A program made the position numbers and the translations under genes. 64,000 nucleotides of DNA. Source: an uncultured virus (IMG/VR IMGVR_UViG_3300017941_000006) (taxonomy: Duplodnaviria; Heunggongvirae; Uroviricota; Caudoviricetes). The stretch is from IMG/VR virus record IMGVR_UViG_3300017941_000006, one strand, 5' to 3'. This document shows, one piece after another, positions 134-21,164 of this stretch (position 1 is the first letter of the stretch; each line of letters starts with the position of its first letter). Under the pieces are notes generated by a model that was not told where the DNA came from, made no database searches, and saw only the letters and a list, made by a program, of their open reading frames with translations.

Positions 134-472
134 ATGAAAAAGAAACCAAAAAGTTTTTTAACCTTTGAAAGTTTTAGGGATAAGATAACTGTTATTTCAA
201 GCATCTTGCTTATATTTGGTATGCTATTTGCAGCATGGATGTTTCTCGATAATAGATATGCCCAAAAGAAAGTTGAACAGAAACTGGATTATGTAAAATA
301 TAGCCTGCAGTTTCAAATGAACAACGATAAGATTTCGACATTGATGTCTTTGTACCCAAAAATAGAAACTGCTGATCCAGTCGTAAAGCAGCAACTTCAA
401 ACTTATATGGATACAAAGTTAGAACTCGTCCGTAAGATGGAAGTTTTAGAAAAGTTGGGGATAGGTCTATAA
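134..472 (+). CDS. small membrane protein (single TM + helical C-terminus)
   Basis: Hydrophobic stretch ITVISSILLIFGMLFAAWMFL; stop overlaps the next start (TAATG). Confidence 0.6.
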   Translation: MKKKPKSFLTFESFRDKITVISSILLIFGMLFAAWMFLDNRYAQKKVEQKLDYVKYSLQFQMNNDKISTLMSLYPKIETADPVVKQQLQTYMDTKLELVRKMEVLEKLGIGL

Positions 473-3400
473 TGCCAAGGGTAAGGTTTGAACCTTTAAA
501 GATAACAACTCTCTACGAAGAGAAAGTTGCTCAAAGCGTTAAGGATCGCTATAAGAGTCACATTAATAGAGAATCCCTTCGTCTCGTAAGTAACATCACG
601 GATGACATGAGGGATAGGATTGCTGGATTAATGCACGAGGGTATTGACGAAGGTAGGTCAGTTAGTGCAACTGCCAGCACACTTCTTAAGACTGGTCTGG
701 ACAAAGGAGTTTTTAGATCGGCAAGACGAAGAGCCTATCTCATATCAAGAACTGAATTACATAGAGCAAGACAACAAGGAGCTTTTGATCTTTATAGAGC
801 AAATCATATTGATCTTGTTAAGTGGATTGCCATAGGAGATGAAAGAACATGCGATACGTGTGCACCCCGAAACAACCATGTTTATAGGCTTAGCGAGATA
901 GAGGGAGACTTACCGCCTATTCATCCAAGATGTAGGTGTAGAGTTGTGCCTTCAGATTTTCAACTCGAGATAAGTGTTAGACGTGATCGAAGAGGAAAGA
1001 TAATGGAAACAAGAATTTCTCCAACTCCTCAGAACTACAAATACTATGTGAGTCTTGACAGGAAGCCAAGAAGACGAGTTAAGAAGTCACTCGAGAAGGC
1101 TGTTTCAGTCAGAGCATTTACAAGGTACGTTCCAGGCAGAGGGTTTCAAAGATATAAACAGTTTCAAAGGGATGTAGCTGTTATTGATAAACCTGTTCCA
1201 AGGGATTTTTCATATGAGATAGCTAACTCTGGGGAAGATGTAGCAAATAAGATTGAGGAACGAAGAGAAGGAAAAGTTCGAGCTACTTATGCCGTTAATG
1301 CGGTTAGGGCTTGGAACATGGAAGCAAAAAATAAGTATCCTAACACTAATTATCTCGGTGACGTTGGCGTTAGAGAATGCTTACAAAATAGTTTGGATGC
1401 GGTCACAGAATCTTTAGAAAAAGGAGAGATAAAGAGGGGCAAGATCGAAATAGAACTTACTCCTCATAAAGAAAAGTACTCTGTCAAAGATAATGGAATA
1501 GGAATGTCCGATACAGACATTCGTGACAAGTTCCTTGCTCTTTACGGAACAGGGAAAGATATCAAAGGTAGATTCGGAGGATTTGGAATCGCTAAGGCTG
1601 TTATCTTGGCTCCTTCTGAAAGTTCACATTGGCAACTCAAAACAAGAGATAATTTCTTTGATGACAAGATGGCCTCTGCAAATGATCAGATTAAAGCCAT
1701 TCCAAAAATTCAAGGAACACAAATTGATGTTTGGGCAGGGGAGGATATTGTTAGCGAAGATGCCAAGAAATATGTGGAGACGACTGAAGTTCCTAAAAAT
1801 ATAGGTATAAGATTTAAGTGGGCACTTGATGATTGGGAAACTTTAAAGAATCCTTTTCTGAAATTAAAGAGTGAAGTAAGTCATACTACGGCAAAGGGTT
1901 CTGAAATAACAATGTCTTTCTTTCCAAGACCGCCATCGGAATACAGAAATCATATGATTTTGAGACTTGTTGACAAAAAGACCGGGGCTAAATTAACTCA
2001 GGCCATAAACCCTATATTTGGAGGTTTTAAAGGGGCTTTAGTTGTTGATATAGAAACAAGTGCAACCCCGGGCTCCGGTGGATATCCTCTTACCGATTCG
2101 AGAATGGGATTGAAGTGGGGAGAAGTTCAAGATTTTGTTAACACAGAAATAAGTCAAAGAACAAGAGAAAAGAAATCAGCTGAGCGAGTTGGTCAACAAG
2201 AGAAGTGGCTGGACTTACCGGAAGTTCCTGGCTGGAAAGATACTCTCGAGAGAATTAAAACAGATACAGGTTATGCATATCTTAAAGACACAATAGATAA
2301 AATTTGGCAAAAAGATTTTGTGTCGCAACATTTAAAAGGTATAGTATCAACAGATATAGGAGAACAACCTTTTACCTCTCTTGAAAATATAAAGATACTT
2401 AGGGATGTTGGCTTTAAAGGTTCGGATGGCGGGACTGTTGCTCAAGCAAAGTTGATGCTGGCATTTGAGTCTTTAGCTCAGATGTATTCACAAACTTTGC
2501 AAAAAGCTGGTATGCATTGTCCGTTGTTTGGATTTCATGCTCTGTTGTCTAAAGCTACATCGACCGGAGTGAGACTTGCACATTTTAGCAGACAAGAACA
2601 TACTTTAGGTTTGGATATTAAATCTTTTCCTAAGAGTGCTTTCGCAAGTCCGGTTAGTCTTGCCTTAGAAATGGTCAACACTATTCAGCATGAGTTCACT
2701 CATAATTGGAGGAGGGAACACGACGAAGGTTTCACTTCTCAACTTGGGCAAATACAAACGGTAACAGCGCCCTTATTTAATAGGGCTTTAGAGGTTGCAG
2801 GAGCGCTTCTCGGCAAGGATACCAGAATAACTATAGATACACCGCAAGGAATAGAAAAAATCAAGAGAAGCCATATTTGGACAATAGGAGAAAAACCAAA
2901 ACAGCCTGAATGGAGAGCAGAACTTTTTCAGTTGTACAAGGAGATAGGGGGAAAGTCAGGAGCGACTGCAGTTTACAAGATTGCTGAAAAATATAACATT
3001 CCAGAGAAACGTGTAAGAATGGTTCTTGCCGGATACAAAGCGGCACAAAGCCGAAAGGAGAAGAAAGATGTCACTAAATCCATTACAGAAAGCAGCGTTG
3101 GATTCCGAGGCCCCGAGAGAACAAGTCATCCAAGGTTTGTTATCCAACTTGATAAACGATTGCCTGATGAAAGCAGGGATCGATCCCAATGGGCCGATAG
3201 CAGGATCGATGCGGAAGCTGGGACAGGACGTTTGGGACTTGAGGGACGCTCTGGAAGAAGAGGGTTATTGGTAATAGAGAAAGCCAGATCTCACAAGTAT
3301 CTCAGAAAAATACCGAGAGGATCGGGAAGATATGAATATATCTATCAGAGACCAGATGTAGGTTTTCACGGAACCACTTCTAAGTTTTTAGAAACTATTC

Positions 3401-6400
3401 TTAAAGAAGGTTTAAGAAGTTCAAAAGATACCGGAGTTGCGTTGTATAGTGGAGAATCACAATTTGGCCCAAAAGCTAAGAGATATGGAGTTTATTTCGC
3501 AAAAACTCCGGAAAGAGCTTTTGGTATTGCTGAAGTGGCAACAAAAAAATTTGGTGGGAAGCCTGTAATTTTTATTGCTAAAGTTGATCCTAAAAAAGCA
3601 GAATCGGATGAAGATTTTGCAGTTGTCTTGGGTGATCTCTTTCGTGATATTTCTCGAGACAAACCTCCTCTTTTAACGGGTAATGAAATTAGGCAGCGTC
3701 TCAAGGATTATAAATTAAGCTATGGGGAGACCTATTATATACCGCAAGATACGCAATATAGATTGAATACGTTATCTGACGGAAAATTGGAACGTCTGTA
3801 CGATAATTGGCGGAAGGGAGGTTCTAAAGCGATAGATGAGGAGCTCACATCCAAAGATAGTTGGAAAATATTTGGGAGTGCTGCATTTCCTGGTGATAAG
3901 CCAGAAGATATCAGAGCTGCTATTTTTTGGGATTGGGCTGAACATAAATATACAAGAATAGGATCACCTTTTGAAAAGAAATTAGATAAAGCTTTAAGAA
4001 GGTTAAACTTAAGAGAAGTAACTAAACTTCCAGGGGCCCACGTTGTTGAAAATCCGGCCTTTATAAAAGCTTTAGAAGAGTTTGGATTCTTTGCGACATC
4101 TACCGGACTTTTGAAATCAGTTATGGGAGAAGATTTAAAGAAAGCCAGAAGCTATGTAAGATTCAGACATGGGAAGTATGAGCATGTTAAAGGATGGTCT
4201 GGAAAACCAAGATTATTTGATTTATCATCAGAGGACAAAATTCACCGTTATCTTCTTGACGCATCTTCCCCTGAAATAGAAAAAGCACTTCAAGTAGTTC
4301 AGGAAATACATGCTGTCGGTGGGCAAACTTTATTTATTGGAGGTTGCGTTAGAGATGCTTTGCTTGGCAAGAAGAGTAAAGATATCGATCTTGAAGTTTA
4401 CAATGTGAAACCGGAAGAAGTTCGAGCAATTCTTGACCGAGCCGGAAAAGTAGATCAGGTAGGAAAGAGTTTTGGAGTTTTTAAACTCTCTTTTCCCGGA
4501 ATGGAGGCTATTGATGTAGCCATTCCAAGAAGGGAAAGTAAAACTGGCAAAGGACATAAAGGATTTATGGTAGATCATGATCCTTCAATGACTTTCAAGG
4601 AAGCTGCGGGACGTAGAGATTTAACTATCAATGCTTTGGCATACAATCCTATAGAGGACAAGATAATTGATGAATATGGAGGCCTTCAGGACATTAAGGA
4701 CAAGATATTAAGAGCTACAAACCCAGAAACCTTTGGAGAAGATTCATTAAGAGTATTGCGAGTTATGAGATTCGCTGCCCAGTTAGAATTCTCTCCGGAT
4801 TTTAATCTTGCATGGCTTTGCAGGCAGATCGATCTGACCGATCTTCCAAAGGAGAGAATTTTTGGGGAAGTTGCTGGAATGCTTCTTAAAGCAAAGAGAC
4901 CAAGTATAGGATTAAGATTGATTCACATACTTGGAATTAATAAGATTCTCCCAGAGCTCGATGAACTTAAAGGAACAGAACAGGATGAGAAATGGCATCC
5001 TGAAGGGGATGTATGGGAGCACACATTATTGGCGGTAGACGAAGCCGCCAAGATGAAGAAGCAACTCGCAAATAATCAAGATAGACTGGTTTATATGCTT
5101 GGCGTCCTATGCCATGACATGGGAAAGCCAGAAACAACAGATGTTAATGAGGAGGGGAGAACAATCAGTCATGGGCATGACGAGATGGGAGCGAAGGTAG
5201 CTCAGGATTTTCTTGGAAGATTAACTGACGAGACAGATATTTTAGAAAGAGTTGAAGGTTTGGTAAGACATCACATGAGACCTACCTTCTTCTTTCATGA
5301 CAAGGTTCCGGATTCAGCTATTAGAAGACTTGCAAAGAAAGTCGATATTCCAATGCTCCTTATGGTATCGGCTGCCGATAAATCCGGTAGAGGGGATAAA
5401 GACATTGATCTAAGTGCCGAGAGATGGATGATGAGAAAGTTCAAGAATCTAAAACTCGCACATCCTGAAACTCTCGAGCCGAAAGTCATGGGAAGACATC
5501 TCATTCCATTAGGCATTAAACCTGGCCCGGAGATGGGAAGAATTCTAGACAAGATTTACAATGCTCAGCTGGAAGGTAAGTTTGAAACCACAGATGCTGG
5601 TTTGGAATATGCTAATCAGCAAGGATGGTTAAAGACAGAAGAAGATACTGTCATTAAAGCTGTTCCCGTTAAGAAACTTATAACAAGTAGAGGGAAAACT
5701 TTTCTCCATACTTACTATGAAAATAGAAGTGGCTTAGGCCCCGGATTTTTTGCAGGAGCCGAGCCTTTGGTTGTAAATAAAATGTCTTTCAAGCAAAGTG
5801 AGGATCAGAAAAGATGGGGAGAAGAAGTTGTTCTTGTTGATGTTTCTAAATTTGATGCTGAATGGAGTAAAGACGAAGGATTTTATATTTCTTCTTCTGG
5901 AAAGAATGAGATTAGCAATAGGAGAGAAAAATTCCAAGAGTTTCTCAAAACTGGAAAGCCTATTATAATGCCTTCGGTCTCTGTAAGAGATATCGGATCG
6001 AGGGGTCTTATAGGTTTTACAAATGGAAGACATAGATTTGCAGTTCTCAGAGATATGGGCTTTACAGAAATTCCTGTATCTGTGGATGCGAAATCTGCGA
6101 AGATGGCAAAGGAACTCTTTAAAGCCCCAAGTTTAAAGGAGAAACTGGAAGCGCAAAATTACTGGTGGAAAACCGTTGCCGGAGGAATCGAAAGCAAGTA
6201 TGAGGGGGTTAAAATAGTTTACGCAGGAAAGAAGACATCTGAAGGGTTTACCCATACTTATGCAGATGAGCAGTTCCAAGATGCAATAGATATGATTCCG
6301 GAAGAGCATAGGAAGCTTATTGATTCAGTGATTCTTGAGCCTGGGAGTGTATTGGGTGAAGATGGCAAAGCTGAATTTGGTCGTGTTTTTGAAGGAACAA

Positions 6401-7164
6401 GTTCTATTCACATATACCGTGGGGTTCAACTTCATGAGTATGGAACCAGTTTTGAAGAACAGTTTGCCCACGAAGTGGGACATTTGGTAGCACGAAAAGT
6501 GTTTGGAAGCATAGAAGCTGAGAAGTGGGGCGATGTTATTAAAGGAGAGAATCCTGTTTCTCATAGAGGTAGAGAAAATGCTGCAGAAGATTTTGCAGAA
6601 ACTTATTCTCTTTATCTTAATGATGAATTAAATAAGGATGATTATCCACAGAGATATAAAGCAATAAAGAATATAGTAGATAGGGCAAGGAAGCCCAGAA
6701 AAGTTTCAAAATTAAAATGGGAAGTCAAAGATTTGAAAGATGAGTTTGAAGAGAAGACTCCTTTGCTTCATACTACTTATGACAGATTAGCTGCAGGTGG
6801 GAAAGCTAAATATACTTCGAAGCCAAGTCCTGAAGCTGAAGCCGCTTTGAAAAAATTATTTGGGAAGGGTATGGTGATAGATATGGTAAAATCCAGAAAG
6901 AAGATAGTTGAAATGAAAAAATCCAGACTCGAGAATAAGTTTGTGCCTCACAAGATAGATGGAAAAGTTTCATGGGTTAAAGTTAAACATGGAGGCATGC
7001 TTGTTAAGAGTGCTAAACTTATCCAAGTCGGACAAGAGATTTTAGCCAAGTCTGGTTTAGCTACAATAACTGCGGTCGGGAAAGATGGAGTTACGGCAAG
7101 AACATCTAAAGGAGATAAAATACTTCTCCTTATGAAAGATGTTCTACCTTATGTAAGAGGATAA
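472..7164 (+). CDS. MuF (SPP1 gp7-like) head morphogenesis protein fused to multiple effector domains (polyvalent protein)
   Basis: MuF: RRAYLISRTELHRA, DERTCDTC, PPIHPRCRC. GHKL ATPase: ECLQNSLDA, DNGIGMS, GGFGIA, GTQI. Zincin HEFTH..EH. ART/Tpt1-like FHGT...ILKEGL...VYFA. Class II CCA/poly(A) nucleotidyltransferase GGCVRD, DIDLE, RRDLTINA, EDSLRVLR plus HD domain (HPEGDVWEHT, CHDMGKP). ParB/Srx-like NGRHR. Second zincin HEVGH...EDFAE. Confidence 0.9.
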   Translation: MPRVRFEPLKITTLYEEKVAQSVKDRYKSHINRESLRLVSNITDDMRDRIAGLMHEGIDEGRSVSATASTLLKTGLDKGVFRSARRRAYLISRTELHRARQQGAFDLYRANHIDLVKWIAIGDERTCDTCAPRNNHVYRLSEIEGDLPPIHPRCRCRVVPSDFQLEISVRRDRRGKIMETRISPTPQNYKYYVSLDRKPRRRVKKSLEKAVSVRAFTRYVPGRGFQRYKQFQRDVAVIDKPVPRDFSYEIANSGEDVANKIEERREGKVRATYAVNAVRAWNMEAKNKYPNTNYLGDVGVRECLQNSLDAVTESLEKGEIKRGKIEIELTPHKEKYSVKDNGIGMSDTDIRDKFLALYGTGKDIKGRFGGFGIAKAVILAPSESSHWQLKTRDNFFDDKMASANDQIKAIPKIQGTQIDVWAGEDIVSEDAKKYVETTEVPKNIGIRFKWALDDWETLKNPFLKLKSEVSHTTAKGSEITMSFFPRPPSEYRNHMILRLVDKKTGAKLTQAINPIFGGFKGALVVDIETSATPGSGGYPLTDSRMGLKWGEVQDFVNTEISQRTREKKSAERVGQQEKWLDLPEVPGWKDTLERIKTDTGYAYLKDTIDKIWQKDFVSQHLKGIVSTDIGEQPFTSLENIKILRDVGFKGSDGGTVAQAKLMLAFESLAQMYSQTLQKAGMHCPLFGFHALLSKATSTGVRLAHFSRQEHTLGLDIKSFPKSAFASPVSLALEMVNTIQHEFTHNWRREHDEGFTSQLGQIQTVTAPLFNRALEVAGALLGKDTRITIDTPQGIEKIKRSHIWTIGEKPKQPEWRAELFQLYKEIGGKSGATAVYKIAEKYNIPEKRVRMVLAGYKAAQSRKEKKDVTKSITESSVGFRGPERTSHPRFVIQLDKRLPDESRDRSQWADSRIDAEAGTGRLGLEGRSGRRGLLVIEKARSHKYLRKIPRGSGRYEYIYQRPDVGFHGTTSKFLETILKEGLRSSKDTGVALYSGESQFGPKAKRYGVYFAKTPERAFGIAEVATKKFGGKPVIFIAKVDPKKAESDEDFAVVLGDLFRDISRDKPPLLTGNEIRQRLKDYKLSYGETYYIPQDTQYRLNTLSDGKLERLYDNWRKGGSKAIDEELTSKDSWKIFGSAAFPGDKPEDIRAAIFWDWAEHKYTRIGSPFEKKLDKALRRLNLREVTKLPGAHVVENPAFIKALEEFGFFATSTGLLKSVMGEDLKKARSYVRFRHGKYEHVKGWSGKPRLFDLSSEDKIHRYLLDASSPEIEKALQVVQEIHAVGGQTLFIGGCVRDALLGKKSKDIDLEVYNVKPEEVRAILDRAGKVDQVGKSFGVFKLSFPGMEAIDVAIPRRESKTGKGHKGFMVDHDPSMTFKEAAGRRDLTINALAYNPIEDKIIDEYGGLQDIKDKILRATNPETFGEDSLRVLRVMRFAAQLEFSPDFNLAWLCRQIDLTDLPKERIFGEVAGMLLKAKRPSIGLRLIHILGINKILPELDELKGTEQDEKWHPEGDVWEHTLLAVDEAAKMKKQLANNQDRLVYMLGVLCHDMGKPETTDVNEEGRTISHGHDEMGAKVAQDFLGRLTDETDILERVEGLVRHHMRPTFFFHDKVPDSAIRRLAKKVDIPMLLMVSAADKSGRGDKDIDLSAERWMMRKFKNLKLAHPETLEPKVMGRHLIPLGIKPGPEMGRILDKIYNAQLEGKFETTDAGLEYANQQGWLKTEEDTVIKAVPVKKLITSRGKTFLHTYYENRSGLGPGFFAGAEPLVVNKMSFKQSEDQKRWGEEVVLVDVSKFDAEWSKDEGFYISSSGKNEISNRREKFQEFLKTGKPIIMPSVSVRDIGSRGLIGFTNGRHRFAVLRDMGFTEIPVSVDAKSAKMAKELFKAPSLKEKLEAQNYWWKTVAGGIESKYEGVKIVYAGKKTSEGFTHTYADEQFQDAIDMIPEEHRKLIDSVILEPGSVLGEDGKAEFGRVFEGTSSIHIYRGVQLHEYGTSFEEQFAHEVGHLVARKVFGSIEAEKWGDVIKGENPVSHRGRENAAEDFAETYSLYLNDELNKDDYPQRYKAIKNIVDRARKPRKVSKLKWEVKDLKDEFEEKTPLLHTTYDRLAAGGKAKYTSKPSPEAEAALKKLFGKGMVIDMVKSRKKIVEMKKSRLENKFVPHKIDGKVSWVKVKHGGMLVKSAKLIQVGQEILAKSGLATITAVGKDGVTARTSKGDKILLLMKDVLPYVRG

Positions 7165-7438: not shown

Positions 7439-7771
7439 GTGCTTATGAAAACAGAAATATTGAGAGGACGTAGATACAATATCTATCCCGATCGGCCTAA
7501 GAAGTGCCCGTTTTGTGGATATAGGATAGTATGGTCGAACGCAGATAGATGGAAATGTGGAAAATGCTATAAGAGCTGGGGCAAGAAAACTTTTCCAAGA
7601 CGCAAAGATTTAGGAGATCGTCCAAAGTGCTTATGCGGGGCTTCAAATCCTATATCGGAAGGAGTAAACTGGTTATGTACTGAATGCGGACGGCATTGGC
7701 TGAAGATTTATAGAATAGAAAAACAACTTACCCAAAGGGAGGTTTTAAGCGCTCAAGTTTTTGAAATATGA
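7439..7771 (+). CDS. tandem zinc-ribbon protein
   Basis: CPFC..CGKC and CLC..CTEC; each unit has a W-x-C motif. Confidence 0.65.
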   Translation: MLMKTEILRGRRYNIYPDRPKKCPFCGYRIVWSNADRWKCGKCYKSWGKKTFPRRKDLGDRPKCLCGASNPISEGVNWLCTECGRHWLKIYRIEKQLTQREVLSAQVFEI

Positions 7772-8103
7772 TTATCTACAAAGCTAAGAAGAAGTTATCC
7801 AAAGCTTTAAAAGGAAAGCCTAAATCTGAGGAGATGAAGAGAAAGATATCTGACTTTTTTAAGGGTAAATCTCTTTCGGAAGAGTTAAAGAAAAAGATGA
7901 GTGAAGCTCATATGGGCAAGCCTTGGAGTGAATTCAGAAAAGTTAGTTACTATCGTCATTCAGAAGCGACAAAGAAAAAGTTATCCGATGCCATTAAAGG
8001 AAAATGTTGTTCTGAAGGAGCAAAGAGAAAAGTGTCCGAATTTTGGGCAAAAAGGAGAAGAACCCAATGCGAAAATCGAAATCTGACAGTGGTTTGGAAA
8101 TGA
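7768..8103 (+). CDS. NUMOD3-motif DNA-binding protein (no nuclease domain seen)
   Basis: Repeated KGK-x-x-SEE-x-K-(R/K)K-(I/M)S units and HSEATKKKLS. Confidence 0.7.
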   Translation: MIIYKAKKKLSKALKGKPKSEEMKRKISDFFKGKSLSEELKKKMSEAHMGKPWSEFRKVSYYRHSEATKKKLSDAIKGKCCSEGAKRKVSEFWAKRRRTQCENRNLTVVWK

Positions 8104-8951
8104 TTAAAAGCTTTAAAATCAAGGAGTTACGAAAGTTTTTTGTAAGACGTATTGCAGCAGTTGGGGATTTACATTTGATGTCGAGGTATTCATTATTTCC
8201 TCCGGAGTTTGAGACAGAACAAGGAAATATATTTAAAGCAAGTCCGGGGCAACAACAAATATGGGAATCTTATCAAAACTTTCTTCATGTTTGTGATGAA
8301 TGGGAGGTCGATACAGTTCTTGTTGCATCTGATTTGGTTCATGGACAGAATGCAAAAGAAAGAGGAATGGGTCTGATAAGCACAAACATGAATGAACAAA
8401 TTCAGTTAGCAGAGCTAACTTTGAGGCCTCTCCTTAAAGGAAGGGAGTCTCACTGGGTTAGTGGATCGGGATACCATAACTCTGTTCAGGGAATGTATGT
8501 TGAAGAAGAACTTTGCACGAAGTTGGGAAAGGAGAAGGACATAACTACAAATTGGTATGGCACCGTAGCAAACTTAAAGGTTAAGCCTTTCGATAAGATA
8601 ATCAATTTAACTCACGGTGGTGGAAGAGCGATGTATTATCGAGAGACATTGGCTGCCAGAGAAATCATTTATGGTAAGGTAGCAGAAGTTAATCAAAAAC
8701 TTCCAAGAATTGATATGTATGTTCATGGTCACTTCCATTGGTATTGCTACATGCATCAAGGGAATGTCCATCATTTACAATTACCAGGATTTACTGCTTA
8801 TGAACCGGTTCCGATATTCACCCCTTCTTACACAAGGGCCCAGCCAGACATTGGGGGAGCTCTAATTATGTTTGATCAGAGCGGAAGAATCACGGTTTGG
8901 CACTTCTTGTATCCTCTTCCTCATATTAGCGATGAGGTGACAGGGATTTAA
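8043..8951 (+). CDS. calcineurin-like metallophosphoesterase
   Basis: GDLH, SDLVHG, GSGYH, THG, HGHFH motifs; real start may be ATG at 8100. Confidence 0.75.
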   Translation: MGKKEKNPMRKSKSDSGLEMIKSFKIKELRKFFVRRIAAVGDLHLMSRYSLFPPEFETEQGNIFKASPGQQQIWESYQNFLHVCDEWEVDTVLVASDLVHGQNAKERGMGLISTNMNEQIQLAELTLRPLLKGRESHWVSGSGYHNSVQGMYVEEELCTKLGKEKDITTNWYGTVANLKVKPFDKIINLTHGGGRAMYYRETLAAREIIYGKVAEVNQKLPRIDMYVHGHFHWYCYMHQGNVHHLQLPGFTAYEPVPIFTPSYTRAQPDIGGALIMFDQSGRITVWHFLYPLPHISDEVTGI

Positions 8952-9589: not shown

Positions 9590-11137
9590 ATGGAAAAAGG
9601 CGGATGCGGAGCGATAGAGAGGGACTTTAGTTTTTGGATGCCTCTTGAAGTAGTTAAGGGGCAGAAGGGCGAAATGAGAATTGGAGGGATAGCTTCCGAT
9701 GAAGAGTCCCATGATCTCCAAGGTGAAAAAGTTTTTGTCGATGGTTTAGATACTTCATATTTGCTTCAAAGAGGTGCTTTTAATTGGGATCATCTAAAAG
9801 GCCCAGAAGATATACTTGGCGAGATTGATACTGTTCAAAAGCAAGAAAAGAAGCTTTATGTTGAAGGTTTTTTATATCCCAAAGTTAAGAAGGCCATTGA
9901 TGTATTCGATTTGATGCAATCTCTTAAAGAGTCTGGTAGTAATAGGAAGTTAGGGCTCTCCTTGGAAGGTAAAGTTAAAGAAAGAGATGAAAAAGATGCT
10001 AAGGTCATAAAAAAGGCCTGGATTAAGAACGTTGCCATAACATACAACCCAATTAATCAAGGTGCCTGGGTTGATATGATTAAATCGTTGGGAAACTTTA
10101 CTTTTGATAGTTGTGATAAAGACTGTTCCCGTTGTCCATTATGTGAAGCCAAAAAAGAAGTTAAATTGGAGCCGGTTAAGAAGGCAACAGCAACGCCTCC
10201 TTCTTTTATAGTTCAGGACGGTATCAAATACTATCCAAAAGATTTTGGTGAGTTAAAGAAAGCTGGCGAAGGTGGAACAAGTGGTTCCGGAGGAGCTGCT
10301 CCTGCACCGCCACAAAGTGGTGGTCTTGCTGCTGGACATGATAACCCGGCATCGTCCGGAGGGATTAGTGGTTCGGCTCTTAGGAGACAATCCTTAGATA
10401 AGAAAAAGAAAAAGACGACTTACGATGAAGAGCATGTAGGTCAGAAGGTTGAACCCGAGAAGTCCGAGACAGACAAGAAGAAAAAGAAAAAGATGACTAA
10501 GTCTGAAGTCTTTGAGTTTATTAAGTCTGAGGGAAATTCGGAGGATAGAGCTAATCTTCTTACTGATTTAGTATTTGCAATGATTGAAGTTGCACCGATC
10601 TTAGCAAAATCCAGCGAAGGAGCCAAGAAAGCTTGGATAACCAGACGTAAAGGTTTGATTTCTCTTGCTCAGCAAAAGAAAAAGAAGAAAGACCCAAGAG
10701 ATACCCCTGAATTTTGGGAAGAACGATACGGAAAGAAGAAAAAGGGTGCTGATGTTAGAACAACTGGAAAGGGAGTAACTCCAAGTCCTATTTTAAGTGT
10801 TAAAGAAAAGGAAGATTGGAAGAGGCATTCAAAGATGCCTAAGAAAGTACAGAAGGAAGCACCTAAAGAACTTGCTCCGACAGGGACAGCCAAACTTGTT
10901 GCTCATGAAATTCATAGAATAACTTCCATGTCTGATAAGGCCTTACTTAATCGAGCTACCAAGATTACCGATCCTAATAAAATGAAGAACTTTTATCTTG
11001 CTGCAAAGTTGAAAGGAAAAGGCGATTTAGCCGGAGCAATAATTACTGCCGGTGGGAGAATTGGTATTAACCCGCATGAATTTGGTACTAATGCCAAAGA
11101 AACTACTAAAGAATTCCGAAGACAACTGTCGGCGTAG
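9590..11137 (+). CDS. prohead (capsid maturation) protease with long basic C-terminal extension
   Basis: IGGIASDE..DLQGE, FNWDH, LYVEGFLY, LGLSLEG, NVAITYNPIN (HK97/SPO1-type protease motifs); position upstream of scaffold and MCP. Confidence 0.88.
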   Translation: MEKGGCGAIERDFSFWMPLEVVKGQKGEMRIGGIASDEESHDLQGEKVFVDGLDTSYLLQRGAFNWDHLKGPEDILGEIDTVQKQEKKLYVEGFLYPKVKKAIDVFDLMQSLKESGSNRKLGLSLEGKVKERDEKDAKVIKKAWIKNVAITYNPINQGAWVDMIKSLGNFTFDSCDKDCSRCPLCEAKKEVKLEPVKKATATPPSFIVQDGIKYYPKDFGELKKAGEGGTSGSGGAAPAPPQSGGLAAGHDNPASSGGISGSALRRQSLDKKKKKTTYDEEHVGQKVEPEKSETDKKKKKKMTKSEVFEFIKSEGNSEDRANLLTDLVFAMIEVAPILAKSSEGAKKAWITRRKGLISLAQQKKKKKDPRDTPEFWEERYGKKKKGADVRTTGKGVTPSPILSVKEKEDWKRHSKMPKKVQKEAPKELAPTGTAKLVAHEIHRITSMSDKALLNRATKITDPNKMKNFYLAAKLKGKGDLAGAIITAGGRIGINPHEFGTNAKETTKEFRRQLSA

Positions 11138-11668: not shown

Positions 11669-12364
11669 ATGGCAAAAGAAGAAGAAAAGAAAGAAGAAAA
11701 AAAGGAAGATTTGAAAAAGGTCGATGAGAAGATTGAAAAGAAAGAGCCCGAGATCACTGAGGACGAACTTAAGAAATCTCTCAAAGACTTAACTGACATT
11801 ATCAAGGCTGGACGTGCTCCCGTAGTTACCGAAGAAGAGGAAGAGGACGAAGACGAGGAAGAACTTGAAGAATCCTTTACCGGAAACTTTGAAGAAAACG
11901 AGACCATTGCGAAAGCTATTGAAGTGTCTGACTTCCTTGCCGATCTCGTAGAACAGACAGAGACATCTCTGGAAGCTGTTGGAAAATTGGTTAAATCACT
12001 TCAAAAATCTGAGGAAGTTTTCGATCAGAAGTTCGTTGATGCCCTTGGAAATATTTCCAAGAAATTTGACGACATGGATGCTCGTCTAAAGAAAATTGAA
12101 GATACACCAGTTGCCGCAGGACCAAAGACAATTCAGAAGTCGGTTCAGAAGATCGAAAAATCATTTACGGCTTCCGGGAAAGAGGTTGAAGGAACAGATG
12201 AGTTAGCCGCTTTACCGAAGAGACAGGTCATGGCCCTTTTGGAGAAAGCAGTTGCAGATAACAAGATCAAAGATTCAACGTTATTTGCTTACGAAGGATC
12301 GCCTGGCGTGTTTAAATTTAATAGTGAGGACGAAGAAATCCTCAAGTCCTATATCAAGAAGTAA
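11669..12364 (+). CDS. capsid scaffolding protein
   Basis: Acidic coiled-coil protein between protease and MCP with many phi-x-K-(S/A) motifs. Confidence 0.75.
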   Translation: MAKEEEKKEEKKEDLKKVDEKIEKKEPEITEDELKKSLKDLTDIIKAGRAPVVTEEEEEDEDEEELEESFTGNFEENETIAKAIEVSDFLADLVEQTETSLEAVGKLVKSLQKSEEVFDQKFVDALGNISKKFDDMDARLKKIEDTPVAAGPKTIQKSVQKIEKSFTASGKEVEGTDELAALPKRQVMALLEKAVADNKIKDSTLFAYEGSPGVFKFNSEDEEILKSYIKK

Positions 12365-12461: not shown

Positions 12462-13874
12462 ATGATCTCAATGAAGGACTACGAGCAGACTGATGGTTTT
12501 GGGATGGCTACCTGGGAAGAAGTTGCAGAGTTGAACAAGGCTCTTGCTGCGGGCTATGATATTCCTGCTACGTCAGGAGGTATCAGCGGTTCCGCTTTAA
12601 GGGTTGAGTCACTTGAATCTTCTTTGAAGGTGATCACTTACCAAATGCAACACATTAAGTTCTGGCAGAAGATCCCCAAATTGCCTGCTTATAGTACCGT
12701 TGAAGAGTACAACCAGTTGACTTCTTATGGTTCAGAAGCTGGTGCGTTTACTCCTGAAGGAGAACTTGGTGAATTCGATGATGCTACTTATCAAAGAAAG
12801 GTTTCATTAGTGAAATACCTCCAAACCGTTCGAAAAGTTACCCATCCGTTAACATTGGTTAGGGCAGCTCACGGCGACGTTGTAGGAAATGAAATCCGAA
12901 ATGGTATCATGTGGTTAATCGGAAAAATCGAGAACTACCTATTCTGGGGAAACAGCAAGCTGAGACCTACGGGTGCAGAGGGTTATGAGTGGGATGGAAT
13001 CAATATTTTGATTGATCCCTCTATGGTGATTGATGCTAAGGGAGAACCCCTTGGAGAAGACATCTTAGAAAGCGCTTCTAACACTATTGTTGAAAACTAC
13101 GGTTTTCCAACTGATATCTTTATAGGTACAAGGCCGTTGGCGGATTTAGCTAAAGTAATGTTCCCTAAAGAAAGGATAGTTGTTCCTTACAAGGAAGGTC
13201 AAGTTGGTGTGCCTTTAAATACCTTCGCTTCACAGGCTGGTATTTTGGCATTCAATCCTGACGTTTTCTTGAAGAAGAAGGCTTGTCCTGTTGCTGCCAC
13301 TTCAGGCAAAGCACCTACCGCACCCTCAAGTGTTACTATAGCACAGCGAGCAACTACAGGGCTGGGAGGCGATTGGACGAAGACTGGCAACGCTTATGGA
13401 ACTTACTACTATGTTGCAACATACGGAAACAGATTCGGAGAATCAGCTCCATGTGGTGTTCAGCACAATGCAAATGCTGCAATCACAGCCGATACTGATG
13501 AGATTACTGTAGCAGTTATGACAACTACCTATTCGATTGCTCCCGATTACGTGAACATCTATAGGTCAGTTGCCAATGATGCAACTGGTACAAGATATCT
13601 TGTTTATTCAGGCCCGGTTGATGATCCCGGAACAAGCACGACCGGTAAAGCATGGGTTGATGTGAACGCTATCTGTGCTAATTGCCATAAAGTATTCTTG
13701 GGCGAGTTAACTCCTCAAGTTATTGCTTTTAAACAGTTAGCCCCTATGATGAAGATGGATTTGGCGGTTGTTGAGCCAAGTGTCCGTTGGTTACAATTAC
13801 TCTATGGAGTACCTCAAATATATGCTCCTAAAAAGTGGATTATAATCAAGAACATTGGTGAAGCTTCTGTTTAA
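12462..13874 (+). CDS. major capsid protein (SPO1/Twort-like)
   Basis: ELNKA|LAAGY...GSALRVESL N-terminus, STVEEYNQ, IENYLFWG, EWDG, Ig-like insertion (YYYVATYGNRFGESAP), LAPMMKMDLA, WLQLLYG..APKKW..IKNI. Confidence 0.92.
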   Translation: MISMKDYEQTDGFGMATWEEVAELNKALAAGYDIPATSGGISGSALRVESLESSLKVITYQMQHIKFWQKIPKLPAYSTVEEYNQLTSYGSEAGAFTPEGELGEFDDATYQRKVSLVKYLQTVRKVTHPLTLVRAAHGDVVGNEIRNGIMWLIGKIENYLFWGNSKLRPTGAEGYEWDGINILIDPSMVIDAKGEPLGEDILESASNTIVENYGFPTDIFIGTRPLADLAKVMFPKERIVVPYKEGQVGVPLNTFASQAGILAFNPDVFLKKKACPVAATSGKAPTAPSSVTIAQRATTGLGGDWTKTGNAYGTYYYVATYGNRFGESAPCGVQHNANAAITADTDEITVAVMTTTYSIAPDYVNIYRSVANDATGTRYLVYSGPVDDPGTSTTGKAWVDVNAICANCHKVFLGELTPQVIAFKQLAPMMKMDLAVVEPSVRWLQLLYGVPQIYAPKKWIIIKNIGEASV

Positions 13875-16580: not shown

Positions 16581-18620
16581 ATGAGAAGGCAAGCGAATCA
16601 CATTCCGTTTGCAAGTAAAAGTCTCTCTTCTTTTAAAAGCCAGCCTATTCAACAAAGAACTCCTAAAAATGTTATTCCAGCTATTCTTATAAGTCGTCAA
16701 ACCGGGGGCATAGGCGACATGCTTATGATCACCCCTTCAATCAAAGCAATCAAAGAAGCCAATCCAGATACCCCTATCATCCTTAGCACCTCTTCTGCAT
16801 ATGGTGGAGGAAGAGGTGTTCTCATCGACATCTTGAAATACAATCCCTATATTGATAAGGTCATATCTGTTGATAAGATTGAAGAATATGACTTTAAAAA
16901 GACCTATGATTTTGGATCGGGGCGAGAAGTTGCAATAGAAGCACGAACTAATGAGAATAGAATAGACATATTTGCCAGACTTGCTGAACTTGAGCTTAAA
17001 GATAAACAGACGATTTATGTTGTATCCGAAAGTGAAAAGCAATGGGCAAAGAAATGGATCACAGATCGAATTCCTCCGGAGAGAAGGAAACTTATAGGTA
17101 TCCAGGTTCATACAACAACAGCCAAGCGTAATTGGCCTGAAGAAAAATCTCTTCTTTTAGCTTTTCAGATTGCTAATACTTGGAAGGATACTTCTATTCT
17201 TCTTTTTTATGAGGGATTAACAGAAATCAAATCTTCGACCTATGTTAATATCTATCCGATAGTCAGATTGCCTATTCGATGGGTTGCAGCTTTAATTAAT
17301 GAATGTGAAATTTTTGTTTCCCCAGATAGCGGGTTATTGCATATAGCTGGGGCTCTTAAAAAGAAAACATTAGGAATATTTGGTTCTATCAAACCCGAGT
17401 CCAGGTTATCTTACTATCCAAACGCTCAGGGAGTGTATTTGTATTATCCATGCAGCCCTTGTTGGTATAAGACTTGTGAAAATCACTACGAATGTTTAAG
17501 AAATATAGATACGAATCTCGTTTTAAACCGTGTTGAGAAGTTTCTCGGCAAACCCATTGCTCAGGATAAAACAATAGTTCTTCCTAAAAAACTCAAAAAG
17601 ACTAAGAAAAGTAAGGAACGTGTTCTTGTTATAAGAATGGGAGGAATGGGGGACATTGCTTGTCTATCTTCTTCCCTTAAAACCTTCAAAAAAGAAAATA
17701 AGGATAGCATTGTTGACTTGGCAACAATGCCGGAGAATGTTCATATACTCAAAGGGGTTTCATTTCTCGATGATGTCTTTTCTTTAAATGATATCCCAAA
17801 GAAGGTTCCTTATGATAGGACATTTGATTTAAGATATGGTGCGGAGGGTGAAAGAATAGGGGAAGGTAAATTGCTTTGGAATATCTATATGACCCAAGAT
17901 CGATCAGACATTTTTGATAGTCTAATGGGTGTCAAAGGGGAAAAAGAATTTGAAGTTGTAGTAGATGCAGACGCCCTTAAAACAATGAAGAAAAGAATAA
18001 AATCATTGAAAGGGAGGATAGTTCTTATTAATCCGACAACAAAAGGAGACGTAAGAGCAATTCCGGTGGAGTACATCGAGCCTCTGTGCGAGATGATTTT
18101 AGGTATTCCCAGTGAGCAGGAAAAGTCTGGTGATCTTCCTCTAAGGGAAGAGCTTAAGAAACCACGTGAGAAACTTTCAATTATTATAGCTGGTACAGAT
18201 ATGGGATGGGGAGATTATATAAGAAACCAAGAGCTTAAAGAAGATAAACGAATTCTCAATCTTTTGGGAAAGACATCCGTTCAGGAAATTGTAGCTTTGG
18301 TAAACCTTTCGGATATTGTTATTTGCCCGGATGCTGGACTTATGCACATAGCCGGAGCTCTTAAAGTTAATTGCGTAGCGATTTTTGGTAACATCGATCC
18401 TCAAACCAGAGTTAAATACTATCCTTCCGTTTTTCCATTGTATCCCAAGGGTGAATTTCCTTGTATTCCTTGTGGTGACATTCCGGCTGTAGCCGCTGAT
18501 TGTAAAAAGAGAGTTAGACCAACACACACCCCCGGGGCTGCTTGCATGAAATTGATCACTCCTGGGAGAATTTACGAAGCTGCCAAGGAGGTTTTAAATA
18601 TCAAAGATGGAAGACGTTAA
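16581..18620 (+). CDS. tandem double GT9-family (heptosyltransferase-like) glycosyltransferase
   Basis: Two copies of GG(I/M)GD...PD(S/A)GL(L/M)HIAGAL....(G/A)IFG with C-terminal Cys clusters. Confidence 0.85.
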   Translation: MRRQANHIPFASKSLSSFKSQPIQQRTPKNVIPAILISRQTGGIGDMLMITPSIKAIKEANPDTPIILSTSSAYGGGRGVLIDILKYNPYIDKVISVDKIEEYDFKKTYDFGSGREVAIEARTNENRIDIFARLAELELKDKQTIYVVSESEKQWAKKWITDRIPPERRKLIGIQVHTTTAKRNWPEEKSLLLAFQIANTWKDTSILLFYEGLTEIKSSTYVNIYPIVRLPIRWVAALINECEIFVSPDSGLLHIAGALKKKTLGIFGSIKPESRLSYYPNAQGVYLYYPCSPCWYKTCENHYECLRNIDTNLVLNRVEKFLGKPIAQDKTIVLPKKLKKTKKSKERVLVIRMGGMGDIACLSSSLKTFKKENKDSIVDLATMPENVHILKGVSFLDDVFSLNDIPKKVPYDRTFDLRYGAEGERIGEGKLLWNIYMTQDRSDIFDSLMGVKGEKEFEVVVDADALKTMKKRIKSLKGRIVLINPTTKGDVRAIPVEYIEPLCEMILGIPSEQEKSGDLPLREELKKPREKLSIIIAGTDMGWGDYIRNQELKEDKRILNLLGKTSVQEIVALVNLSDIVICPDAGLMHIAGALKVNCVAIFGNIDPQTRVKYYPSVFPLYPKGEFPCIPCGDIPAVAADCKKRVRPTHTPGAACMKLITPGRIYEAAKEVLNIKDGRR

Positions 18621-19590
18621 AGTTATATTCATTGCTTATAACAGGCCGCAGTATTTCAAGCAAGAGTTGGAGTCTATCAAAGATCAGGTTATGGGTATGG
18701 ATGTTCATCTTATTCTTGACGGCCCTAAAGAGAAACAATTAAAAGGCGAAAGCACAGAATGGATGAGAGATAAATTTAAAGCATATCAGTTTGGATATGA
18801 GGAAGATGAGCGGAGAATTAATGAGTGTGAACAATTATTTAAAGAAGCTTTTAAGTCCTATCCAGATATAGATAGGAGAGTTCACAGAGAGAAGGAAAAT
18901 ATCGGCGGGGATAGAAATGTTGGCAAGGCTTATTACGTCGCTTTTGAAGAACTTGGGGCCAAGTATGCTTTTTTTATTGAAGATGATTTTGTTTTTGCCC
19001 CTGTCTATGTGGAGCAACTAAAGATTCTTTTTGACTTTTGTAAAGACGACAAAGATATCGTAATAATGACTTGTTTCGGGTATTTATCAAGGGAATGGCC
19101 TCCTGGAATATTGGATAAGCAGTATTGTAAACTTATAGAACAGTCGTGGCTTTGTGGTTCTTTGTGGAAAAGGGATGCATGGGAGATTCTTAAACCCCAT
19201 TTTGATATATATTTAGATTTAATCAAGAATAACCCTTGGGATGTGTTTGTTGAAAAACTAAAGGCGTATACAAAAAGCATTGGCATTCATTATCTTGATA
19301 GTGCCGGAGGCGAAGACTCTTTTCTTGCGAATGTTTTATCTATATATCAGAAATTAAGGGTAAGTACAGCTGGGGAATATCTTTATAACATAGGGAAAAC
19401 AGGCGCTCATTGTTATGAAGAGATGATAGGAAATCATCCTATGTTTATCAAAAATATTTATCCTAAAGTTGCCAGAGAACTTTACATCGACAAGCAACAC
19501 AGAGGTTTTCAACTTCAATTAACCGGAAGTCTATCGGAGGATTGGGAAGAGAAACGAAAAAAAATAATCGAAAACACTCTTCCTTATTAG
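18607..19590 (+). CDS. GT-A fold glycosyltransferase
   Basis: IAYNRPQYF, ILDGPK, FIEDDF, GED. Confidence 0.75.
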   Translation: MEDVKVIFIAYNRPQYFKQELESIKDQVMGMDVHLILDGPKEKQLKGESTEWMRDKFKAYQFGYEEDERRINECEQLFKEAFKSYPDIDRRVHREKENIGGDRNVGKAYYVAFEELGAKYAFFIEDDFVFAPVYVEQLKILFDFCKDDKDIVIMTCFGYLSREWPPGILDKQYCKLIEQSWLCGSLWKRDAWEILKPHFDIYLDLIKNNPWDVFVEKLKAYTKSIGIHYLDSAGGEDSFLANVLSIYQKLRVSTAGEYLYNIGKTGAHCYEEMIGNHPMFIKNIYPKVARELYIDKQHRGFQLQLTGSLSEDWEEKRKKIIENTLPY

Positions 19591-19593
19591 AAA

Positions 19594-20514
19594 ATGGAAA
19601 AACTTTACACCAGCACTACAGCTAAATTGCTTCACAATCTACATCGATTGATCGAGATAAAGAACGGAGTTTTCAGGCCTATATCTGTTCAATTTGCTCC
19701 GACTGATAAGTGCAATCTGGATTGCGATTTTTGCTCTGTTAAAAATCGGGAAGGTGATGAGATAGAAATTGGAGATGCTAAGAAAGCTGTTTTTGATTTT
19801 AAAAATTTAGGGGCCAAGACAATCGAATTTACAGGCGGAGGAGAACCCACTTTATATAAAGGGATTAATGAGCTCATTTTGTATTCTCACAATTTGATGT
19901 ATAGGATAGGATTTATAACTAATGGGATCAAACTTTCCAAGATTGTGGATGAGAATCTGGATAGGCTCGATTGGCTTAGAATTAGTTTGAACAGCCTGGA
20001 CTATGTCAAAGATATAGATGTCCCTAAAATAAAAGGCACTTTGGGATTTAGCTACGTCATAAATGATAGGACAACGGAAAAGACTTTCGAGAAGATCAAG
20101 CAATACAAAGAAAAATATGAAGCGACTTATGTTCGGATAGTTCCGAACTGTTTATCGGTAGACACAATAGAGGAGTCCAGGAAGAAAGCCGAGAACTTAT
20201 TGAATCAATCAAAGGGATTCTTTTTTCAGTCTAAAAAATATGATGTTCCGAAGAGATGCTGGATCGGATATCTGAAACCTTTTATAGCTCCGGATGGTTA
20301 TGTCTATGCGTGTTCTGCAAATCCGTTGATAGCAAGAAAGTTTGATCCAAGATTTAGAATAGGTCACATCTCTAATGTTAGGGAGATTTACGACCGTAAA
20401 GTTTTTATACCTTTCGATACTTCGGTATGCCAGAAAGGCAAATGTTTTTTCAAAGAGCATAATGATCTAATCGAAGACCTACTTTGCGAAATAGAACATG
20501 AGGATTTCATATAA
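19594..20514 (+). CDS. radical SAM protein with Twitch/SPASM-like C-terminus
   Basis: CNLDCDFC, TGGGEPTL, CWIG...DGYVYAC. Confidence 0.88.
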   Translation: MEKLYTSTTAKLLHNLHRLIEIKNGVFRPISVQFAPTDKCNLDCDFCSVKNREGDEIEIGDAKKAVFDFKNLGAKTIEFTGGGEPTLYKGINELILYSHNLMYRIGFITNGIKLSKIVDENLDRLDWLRISLNSLDYVKDIDVPKIKGTLGFSYVINDRTTEKTFEKIKQYKEKYEATYVRIVPNCLSVDTIEESRKKAENLLNQSKGFFFQSKKYDVPKRCWIGYLKPFIAPDGYVYACSANPLIARKFDPRFRIGHISNVREIYDRKVFIPFDTSVCQKGKCFFKEHNDLIEDLLCEIEHEDFI

Positions 20515-21164
20515 TGGATTATAGTGAGGAAGGAGCATTTTTAGTAAATTTCTTTAAAGAGCATCCTGCTAAATACAAGTTCTTGGTAGATGTCGGGGCT
20601 TTTACTACGGATGGTTCTAATACCCTTAATTTACTCGAGCTTGGATGGTCGGGACTTCTCATAGAACCTATGCCAATAGAAAAGTATTACAGACCCTTGG
20701 TTGAAGCTTTAAAAGGAAATGATAAAGTTAAATTTTGCAATTTAGCAATTTCGGATTTTTGCGGAACAGCTGAAGGTTTTGAATACTATGACGGTGAAGG
20801 CGCCCTGGCTGGTCATAGTTCGATGATGAATGAAACATATGATACAGGTGCTCAGAAGATGGTTGTTCGCATACCAAAGAAGAAGTTTTTGTTAACTGTT
20901 TCTACATTGCCTAAAGTTCTTGAAGACTATAATGTTCCCCTTGATTTTGATGTTCTTTCTGTGGATGCGGAGGGAATGGATTTTAGGATTCTTAAGCATC
21001 TTTTTTTAAAAAGCAGCTATCGTCCAAAGATTATAGTAGTTGAATGGGGGAAAGATTTTCCCCATCTTCAAGATTGGGAAACTCTGGAATCCGATGATTC
21101 AATTTTTGATGGATATGAACTTCTGCTTCAAACACAAGGCAATAGAATAATTTTGAGGAAGTAG
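20514..21164 (+). CDS. FkbM-family methyltransferase
   Basis: VDVGA..GSNT, GWSGLLIEP, DVLSVDAEGMD, RPKIIVVE. Confidence 0.85.
   Translation: MDYSEEGAFLVNFFKEHPAKYKFLVDVGAFTTDGSNTLNLLELGWSGLLIEPMPIEKYYRPLVEALKGNDKVKFCNLAISDFCGTAEGFEYYDGEGALAGHSSMMNETYDTGAQKMVVRIPKKKFLLTVSTLPKVLEDYNVPLDFDVLSVDAEGMDFRILKHLFLKSSYRPKIIVVEWGKDFPHLQDWETLESDDSIFDGYELLLQTQGNRIILRK

Follow-up and report, generated by a model that had tools for sequence, protein, structure and literature searches.

How a single phage protein that strings together many unrelated enzymes is taken apart into working units is the question raised by a 64,000-nucleotide stretch of DNA from an uncultured tailed virus (IMG/VR record IMGVR_UViG_3300017941_000006; the whole stretch is called the window below), which covers the structural genes of an SPO1- and Herelleviridae-related myophage. 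One of its genes encodes a protein of 2230 residues, here called the polyprotein, with the module order MuF, GHKL-ATPase, zincin-like HEFTH region, PARP/Tpt1-like module, CCA-adding enzyme plus HD, ParB-like module, zincin-like HEVGH module and a conserved C-terminal module (Table 1). By its domain make-up and context, this chain is predicted to belong to the polyvalent proteins as defined by Iyer et al. 2017 (PMC5512222): it combines at least two unrelated enzymatic domains in one polypeptide (HATPase_c_3, PolyA_pol/CCA and HD), it starts with a MuF domain, presumed to be the anchor that brings the chain into the prohead, its gene lies directly upstream of the head module and, as regards the metallopeptidase (MPTase) hub domain of such proteins, it contains two HExxH motifs whose zincin profile matches stay below threshold. 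We consider it probable that an S78-type prohead protease cuts the polyprotein at inter-domain [LIVM]-x-K↓[A/S] sites, as the initial annotation of this DNA had proposed (the arrow marks the suggested cut after the Lys at P1, with Ala or Ser as P1'). This reading is built on five observations: the motif is enriched, the enrichment is restricted to head proteins, the motif is conserved, it is excluded from domain cores and it coincides with module borders.

The motif was scored as [LIVM]xK[AS] and compared with expectations from composition-preserving shuffles of each protein separately. We found 19 sites in the polyprotein against 6.3 expected (z 5.1), seven in the protease against 2.1 (z 3.5) and nine in the scaffold against 1.1 (z 8.3); the capsid protein has one, with 1.0 expected. 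The negative control consisted solely of the 63 other mechanically called open reading frames (ORFs) of the window, which in 16,842 aa contain 29 sites against 30.4 expected (z -0.3). The motif excess is thus confined to head-module proteins. Six control motifs (the reversed motif, R or E at P1, other P1' classes and shifted spacing) showed no excess in the same head proteins, and an unbiased profile around all 381 Lys residues of 11 scaffolds recovered the motif, with P3 enriched for L (2.5-fold) and I/M (1.8-fold) and P1' for S (2.6-fold) and A (2.2-fold). In the scaffold of the window, all nine K[AS] dipeptides have [LIVM] at P3. One further candidate substrate, the metallophosphoesterase at 8043..8951, had three sites against 0.5 expected, but two of the three exist only if translation begins at a doubtful TTG, in an extension overlapping the preceding ORF; an ATG at 8100 is the likely start and four orthologs have no site, so that the excess is an ORF-start artefact.

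A query with a single protease retrieved identical contigs only; relatives were fetched with a protease alignment, and the 10 longest or most informative of 38 metagenome loci were scored, the other 28 being short fragments or duplicates. The excess was found again in the polyproteins of L003 (14 sites against 3.6 expected), L025 (9 against 3.5), L027 (11 against 3.5) and L046 (19 against 7.0), and in an ORF upstream of the polyprotein gene of L027 (6 against 2.0). Scaffolds of ten relatives have 7-11 sites with about one expected (z 6.4-9.6), and the proteases have 5-8 against 1.0-2.7, with a weaker value in L035 (6 against 3.4), whereas the capsid proteins have a single, N-terminal site. Similar figures were obtained for cultured Herelleviridae phages. 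Specifically, phage 812 has seven sites in its scaffold (1.0 expected) and VVK↓S at aa 22-25 of its capsid protein, and CP-51 has six in its protease (0.8 expected), 11 in its scaffold (0.9 expected) and LNK↓A in its capsid protein.

The sites avoid domain cores and coincide with module borders. In six polyproteins, only four of 78 sites fall inside Pfam envelopes, whereas 24.7 would be expected from coverage (binomial 9e-9), and each annotated domain has sites on its flanks at distances of 3-63 aa, apart from a few exceptions in unannotated stretches. These polyproteins are mosaics of common and unshared modules, and for 35 of the 63 non-redundant borders of homology blocks (at least 60 aa) a site is no more than 10 aa away, compared with an expected 10.5 +/- 3.4; none of 2000 random placements of equal site number reached 35. 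In a four-way alignment of the CCA module, a site precedes the module in all four proteins (LKKA/LEKA/LEKA/IIKA) and a site follows it in all four (VIKA/INKA/LMKS, with LIKS a few residues upstream in L046), whereas the three sites inside the window's CCA module (K1271, K1332 and K1473) are kept in only one or two of the four and are probably due to chance. Conservation is also seen at the junction sites that follow MuF and at those of the C-terminal module. In an AlphaFold2 (AF2) model of aa 1195-1775, built from a 7-row alignment (mean pLDDT 71.8), K1215, K1224 and K1729 are placed in flanks with pLDDT below 50, a level that the model does not exceed from aa 1723 on. Of the internal sites, K1271 and K1473 are modelled in helices of good confidence and K1332 in a short loop of low confidence.

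These positional results bear on one alternative, namely that the pattern is a by-product of Lys-rich, helical composition together with selective listing in the initial annotation. The head proteins are indeed rich in Lys (10-16% K), the annotation had named just 10 of the 19 polyprotein sites, and the metallophosphoesterase shows how an apparent excess (3 against 0.5) can come from a misplaced ORF start. However, the shuffles keep composition, neither the reversed motif nor the five substituted ones are in excess, the 63 other ORFs are at expectation, the result repeats in more than ten relatives, and the tests on domain cores, block borders and CCA flanks contradict it. A composition artefact is rejected by these controls, and we give it practically no chance of being the explanation.

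Several individual joints can be described beyond what is listed in Table 1. The tandem sites after MuF have orthologous counterparts in L003, L025 and L027, and aa 215 and 210 are the last residues of the homology blocks shared with L003 and L027, respectively. Before the CCA enzyme, homology blocks begin at aa 1221-1222 in three comparisons, and the basic hairpin there matches a hairpin profile (see below) at E 1.6e-7. The hairpin variant at the PARP/Tpt1-like joint, starting with 'ARSHKY...', recurs in L027, with two copies in the polyprotein and one in the upstream ORF. The module that follows it, aa 938-1173, which the initial annotation labelled ART, has PARP/Tpt1 matches, all below threshold, in the stretch aa 959-1013, and weakly resembles a standalone, cassette-bearing ORF of the L003 phage (29% over 76 aa, E 4e-5). 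K1884 is isolated, being preceded by 154 and followed by 255 site-free residues. At the C-terminus, all four relatives have a site in the alignment columns of K2150 and K2193, and three of the four have one in that of K2140. The C-terminal module itself, about 80 aa (6922-7161, aa 2151-2230) with the invariant internal site ILAK↓S, is conserved at the ends of the L003, L027 and L046 polyproteins, occurs in a small ORF directly 3' of the polyprotein gene in L025 and has a further match close to the beginning of the upstream ORF of L027; it might represent a second capsid-targeting element. The remaining sites are IAKA K375, LQKA K678, LSKA K694, IEKA K1271, VGKS K1332 and LLKA K1473, six in-domain sites that equal the chance level of about six (6.3) and leave 13 as the excess. 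For VTK↓S at K869, we found no independent border evidence, since the region has neither a relative nor a Pfam domain to compare. The motif positions that the annotation had placed in the polyprotein were all correct and its reading is supported, except that VTKS at 3070 has no such backing; its selection consisted of the sites that fitted, with LVKS and LAKS counted only loosely and the six in-domain sites, LDKA at K1173 and LFKA at K1884 left out. Its list for the scaffold was exact (nine of nine) and the four sites it named in the protease exist, as four of seven. The two counts it had called for, in non-head proteins and in linkers against domain cores, both came out in its favour.

The prohead protease has a protease domain at about aa 1-165, followed by a long C-terminal extension, and is encoded just upstream of the scaffold and major capsid genes, as expected of a caudovirus prohead protease. 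It shares 42% identity over 146 aa with gp32 of CP-51 (E 8e-24), which in turn matches PF04586 (Peptidase_S78) with 32.7 bits (cut-off 21), as does the protease of phage 812 above the same cut-off. H68 and S124 are invariant in 24 homologs and align with the His and Ser of CP-51 gp32, suggesting that they are the conserved putative catalytic His and Ser of an S78-type protease, and MIK↓S at the end of the domain is likely to be a self-cleavage site, judging from its invariance. The copy of the capsid protein N-arm that lies in the extension is also present in the proteases of CP-51, of all 24 aligned homologs and of phage 812, there including the cut site (47% over 51 aa, E 6e-13), and it may be a mimic of the scaffold-bound capsid N-arm through which the protease is brought into the prohead. 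In L035 (110-3145) and L027 (9473-12247), the protease genes encode 924-1011 aa with a DUF5661 domain and several hundred residues beyond the protease domain and the N-arm copy; such long proteases may carry cargo themselves.

The capsid protein is 41-47% identical to those of Bacillus Herelleviridae phages, and, as in the head module of that family, a homolog of SPO1 Gp6.1 is combined with an N-terminal propeptide. L24 and K26 are invariant in five diverged relatives, all five of which keep the propeptide site. In PDB entries 9row, 9rox and 9roz, the 439-residue chain of the phage 812 capsid protein comprises residues 25-463 and starts at Ser25, after V22-V23-K24; the start of this mature chain is the P1' residue homologous to that of the capsid site in the window. 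It is the only experimental anchor that we found for the motif, and it supports both the placing of ELNK↓A before the mature N-terminus and the statement, in the initial annotation, that capsid proteins of the K-like type are processed behind a K↓S site. We found neither this site nor a consensus for cleavage by Herelleviridae proteases stated in the available parts of the non-subscription literature (including PMC3601020, PMC5923470, PMC6409932, PMC12282133 and PMC12886913).

Many junctions share more than the tetrapeptide. We found a cassette consisting of an often present beta-strand leader (Y-V-[IV]-L-x-K), the K↓[AS] step and a basic hairpin of about 25 residues with the consensus K↓[AS]-x-x-V-K-G-[FHY]-x-R-T-R-K-G-K-x-x-x-V-K-x-[YH]-x-R, which aligns across junctions and proteins; AF2 predicts a two-strand hairpin for the basic stretch (pLDDT below 50 in the region of the pre-CCA junction). 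With a hairpin profile built without the cut motif, 13 of 14 significant non-seed matches in the relatives had the strict motif directly upstream, 12 of the 14 being orthologous copies in C-terminal extensions of related proteases. When 1.84 billion representative proteins were searched, 80 proteins with 134 hairpins were found at E <= 1e-3; just upstream, 87 of the hairpins had the motif in its strict form and 104 in a looser form that allows F at P3, R at P1 or G/T at P1'. Many of the matches are standalone proteins that start with M-[KN]-[YF]-V-[IV]-L-[EQ]-K↓A followed by the hairpin; the cargo recognised by Pfam comprises ART-PolyVal, the Thoeris inhibitor Tad6, ADP-ribosyl exoenzyme-like, NUDIX and PI3/4-kinase-like domains, and MuF-ART-CCA and MuF-InPase-CCA chains are found as well. 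Modules of the Acb1/2H phosphoesterase and PBECR nuclease types also occur in the polyproteins of relatives. The L003 contig has a cluster of nine hairpins at 35.6-53.4 kb, within the head module and immediately before it, and genes upstream of the polyprotein start with MNYVVLEK↓A, MNYVILEK↓S and MNFVILEK↓A plus hairpin, indicating that the same kind of unit is a separate gene in one phage and an internal module in another. No standalone cassette gene was found in the window or in near-identical contigs. A different family with the same hairpin is possibly represented by small basic proteins of 73-203 aa that do not look like phage proteins (P0064-P0066, P0078, P0090, P0092, P0095, P0120 and P0121); these match the profile with tandem V-K-G-Y-T-R-x-x-K-S-G-K-x-V-x-V-K-G-Y-T-R-K repeats, have no cut motif, and some have a signal-peptide-like start.

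The cassette allows a different explanation, in which the junction motif belongs to a structural or targeting element for folding, capsid loading or DNA binding and is not cut by the prohead protease, the chain staying whole or being self-processed by its HExxH modules before or after injection. With the strict motif directly upstream of 87 of the 134 hairpins and the leader 'YVIL' itself conserved, the tetrapeptide is indeed embedded in a larger conserved element. However, it is enriched 6- to 10-fold in scaffolds and proteases that have no hairpin, and it also ends the capsid propeptide. The distant relatives G005 and G006 have no hairpins by the profile, yet the scaffold and protease of G006 (L009) are motif-rich, so the motif is wider than the cassette. 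A second copy of the motif lies 3-20 aa before eight of the 22 junction cassettes, where 1.0-3.0 such cases would be expected (P 0.0065), which fits selection for cleavability, and there are junction sites outside cassettes, at K869, K1215, K1884, K2140 and K2150. As for self-processing, the upstream ORF of L027 has six sites and no HExxH. On balance, we regard this explanation as unlikely, though it is the main rival.

Processing by the prohead protease, our preferred reading, must also be set against a number of points that weigh the other way. About six of the 19 polyprotein sites of the window are probably chance occurrences; the protease of the window itself has no Pfam match even at E <= 10; and the lineage of L005, L006 and L007, whose protease is 42% identical, is unenriched (scaffold 3 against 1.3, protease 1 against 0.6, MuF protein 2 against 2.4), so that the motif does not extend to every relative with a protease of about this identity. 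The tests are partly interdependent, block borders having been counted in both partners and several relatives being close to one another, and cleavage in this phage is deduced from sequence statistics only. Within the cassette, K↓[AS] sits between a conserved strand and the hairpin, and its conservation could be structural rather than proteolytic; all 134 hairpins have the same context or none, and the motif does not co-vary with protease type in a way that would separate the two readings. Each main polyprotein has HExxH (two in the window, with sub-threshold WLM and ATLF matches, and one each in L003, L025, L027 and L046). The initial annotation had left out of account the two HExxH modules of the window as rival processing enzymes, and also the larger junction cassette. 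Iyer et al. 2017 propose zincin-mediated processing of such proteins, arguing for a role of the MPTase domains, and the vRNAP of phage N4 is packaged unprocessed (PMC5512222).

If the prohead protease is nevertheless responsible, the events may be as follows. The motif [LIVM]-x-K↓[A/S] would be recognised by the S78-type prohead serine protease encoded at 9590..11137, and the 2230-aa protein would enter the prohead via its N-terminal MuF domain. In the prohead, the protease would trim the 26-residue capsid propeptide after K26, degrade the scaffold at nine sites, cut itself after K165 and sever the polyprotein at the module joints, often at tandem sites, into MuF, about six enzymes and the small C-terminal module; the predicted products are MuF, the GHKL-ATPase with the zincin-like region, the PARP/Tpt1-like module, CCA plus HD, the ParB-like module, the zincin-like module and the C-terminal module. 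The separated enzymes would then stay in the capsid and be ejected with the DNA, and, as a speculation, the basic hairpin at the new N-termini may hold each product on the DNA or in the capsid until ejection. Capsid protein, scaffold and protease are prohead substrates in HK97-type head maturation. The motif is common to the scaffold, the capsid propeptide and the protease itself, i.e. to prohead substrates, and we therefore infer that the cutting enzyme would be the prohead protease and the place the prohead, and consider it very improbable that the polyprotein is cut at the same sites only after ejection, by a host or another phage protease. Nothing specific points to such late cutting, a possibility that is mentioned by Iyer et al. 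2017 (PMC5512222).

Table 1. Positions of the polyprotein modules, proposed cleavage sites and head-module proteins in the 64,000-nucleotide window
Feature	Nucleotides	Strand	Residues	Details
Polyvalent polyprotein	472..7164	+	2230 aa	One open frame; Pfam, PHROG and NCBIfam matches
MuF / SPP1 gp7-like minor head domain	619..945	+	aa 50-158	PF04233 E 4.3e-12; TIGR01641 E 1.4e-12
Junction 1, after MuF	1078-1089, 1090-1101	+	K205, K209	Tandem sites VKK↓S and LEK↓A; hairpin-like stretch aa 210-235
GHKL ATPase (HATPase)		+	aa 300-378	Pfam; HATPase_c_3 above Pfam cut-off
HEFTH, possible zincin-like metallopeptidase motif	2689..2703	+	aa 740-744	Pattern match; sub-threshold WLM match E 0.0092
Candidate site VTK↓S	3070..3081	+	K869	
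Junction before PARP/Tpt1-like module	3274..3357	+	K937	IEK↓A (3274-3285); hairpin variant aa 938-962
Candidate site LDK↓A ending PARP/Tpt1-like module	3982..3993	+	K1173	Motif position only
Junction before CCA enzyme	4108..4221	+	K1215, K1224	LLK↓S (4108-4119); LKK↓A (4135-4146); basic hairpin aa 1225-1250
CCA-adding enzyme / HD phosphohydrolase module	4333..5604	+	aa 1288-1711	Pfam and NCBIfam CCA enzyme models
PolyA_pol; HD		+	aa 1288-1414; aa 1514-1605	Above Pfam cut-offs
Junction after HD/CCA module	5650..5736	+	K1729	VIK↓A (5650-5661); hairpin aa 1730-1755, match E 1.3e-5
Candidate junction LFK↓A between ParB-like and HEVGH modules	6115..6126	+	K1884	Motif position
HEVGH, possible zincin-like metallopeptidase motif	6469..6483	+	aa 2000-2004	Pattern match; sub-threshold ATLF match E 0.0017
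C-terminal site cluster and module	6883..7161	+	K2140, K2150, K2179, K2193	MVK↓S (6883-6894); MKK↓S (6913-6924); LVK↓S; LAK↓S
Prohead protease	9590..11137	+	515 aa	phrog_1028 head maturation protease E 4.5e-39; 7 motif sites
MIK↓S at protease domain end	10076..10087	+	K165↓S166	K165 and S166 invariant in 24 homologs; aligns with VVK↓S of CP-51
Copy of capsid protein N-arm in protease extension	10325..10438	+	aa 246-283	61% identity to capsid aa 28-65 (12543-12656), E 1e-11
Scaffolding protein	11669..12364	+	231 aa	phrog_15087; 9 motif sites
Major capsid protein, SPO1 Gp6.1-like	12462..13874	+		phrog_752 E 8e-100; PDB 9vel Gp6.1 E 3.3e-107
Sole capsid protein motif, ELNK↓A (aa 23-27)	12531-12542	+	K26↓A27	LNK↓A; ends N-terminal propeptide

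The prohead protease of T4, gp21, cuts at the motif L/I-x-E↓. Here, as with T4 gp21 and the internal proteins and Alt, one head protease with a short motif would act on shell protein and scaffold as well as on the enzymes that are packed for delivery into the host, and in both cases a short N-terminal leader ends in a cut site. Unlike in T4, however, P1 is Lys rather than Glu, the protease is of the S78/Herelleviridae type, about eight modules are joined into one cargo chain with internal cut sites instead of being separate small proteins, and the leader is followed by a conserved basic hairpin, in a cassette that is also found on standalone effectors. By analogy, the polyproteins of RNA viruses and retroviruses are translated as one product, which a viral protease separates into its functional units at short consensus sites, whereas here a dsDNA tailed phage would use a separate head-maturation protease, with the cutting proposed to take place inside the capsid.

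Among phages, close parallels are the Herelleviridae (SPO1 Gp6.1, PDB 9vel; phage 812, PDB 5lii and 9row), with a homologous capsid protein, the order protease-scaffold-capsid and the motif, with a hydrophobic residue at P3, at the propeptide and in the scaffolds. At the cultured loci, no Pfam match to MuF was found (in CP-51 among the ORFs upstream of portal, including the 1086-aa gp28, and in phage 812 among Gp90 and portal only), and the hairpin cassette was absent by eye from CP-51 and phage 812, both of which lay outside the hairpin profile scan. In the phiKZ-like jumbo phage SPN3US, the protease gp245 likewise cleaves many head and ejected proteins at sites defined by a motif, of which propeptides contain several copies, and substrates were inferred from the motif and mass spectrometry (PMC10052503, PMC7411985); there, N-terminal propeptides are removed, as shown by mass spectrometry, whereas here the sites lie between enzyme domains and are known from sequence alone. 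The polyvalent proteins described by Iyer et al. 2017 also have MuF fused to unrelated enzymes (ART, Pol-beta NTase, ParB and MPTase), are encoded among head genes and are presumed to be injected, but the main proposal there is processing by an embedded zincin, whereas here the prohead-protease motif and the cassette mark the borders; the word 'linker' does not occur in the available text, nor is a junction motif described in it (PMC5512222). The junction cassette was not found described in the available parts of the non-subscription literature. Relative to known head-protease systems, the new features are therefore Lys at P1, a single multi-enzyme chain with internal sites, and a cassette that is also present on standalone effectors.

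In T4, cargo is said to be directed into the head by a capsid targeting sequence, reportedly described by Mullaney & Black in 1996. Short N-terminal leaders ending in the protease motif were found on the standalone ORFs of relatives. We propose, tentatively, that the cassette is a portable tag that marks cargo for packing into the prohead, for trimming by the protease there and for ejection together with the DNA. In its possible form, the tag would consist of a leader [KN]-[YF]-V-[IV]-L-x-K, a cut before [A/S] and a hairpin V-K-G-F-x-R-T-R-K-G-K-x-x-x-V-K-x-Y-x-R; it could be the functional counterpart, in the SPO1-like clade, of the T4 sequence, and the cargo might come either as single genes (ART-PolyVal, Tad6, NUDIX and ADP-ribosyl exotoxin-like) or strung behind MuF.

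Other parts of the window were also inspected. A small Lys-rich ORF with NUMOD3 motifs, known as DNA-binding motifs of homing endonucleases, is located at 7768-8103, between the polyprotein and metallophosphoesterase genes. Between the head genes and the collagen-repeat genes is a block of about 17 kb (16581-33293) with glycosyltransferases, namely GT9 at 16581 and 31563, GT2 at 25307 and 31563 and a sub-threshold GT2 at 18607, together with a radical SAM/SPASM enzyme (19594) and an ATP-grasp enzyme (22531); this block may modify virion proteins. The ORFs at 33317-35629 and 40278-42860 contain collagen triple-helix repeats, with lysine contents of 0.8% and 2.0%, and are probably fibres.

For polyvalent proteins, that is, injected chains of unrelated enzymes, the published proposal for disassembly is self-processing by an embedded zincin; a head-protease motif at the joints turns disassembly into a concrete model with named scissile bonds. 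It also offers a working cleavage consensus for the prohead proteases of the Herelleviridae, a group that includes therapeutic phages of Staphylococcus and Listeria. The cassette, which also opens standalone ART, Tad6-like and NUDIX genes in related sequences, may flag effectors that the virion delivers as infection begins, among them anti-defence enzymes such as Acb1-like 2H phosphoesterases and a CCA-adding tRNA repair enzyme, and, if the cassette is indeed a portable tag, the injected anti-defence effectors of this clade would be readable directly from sequence.

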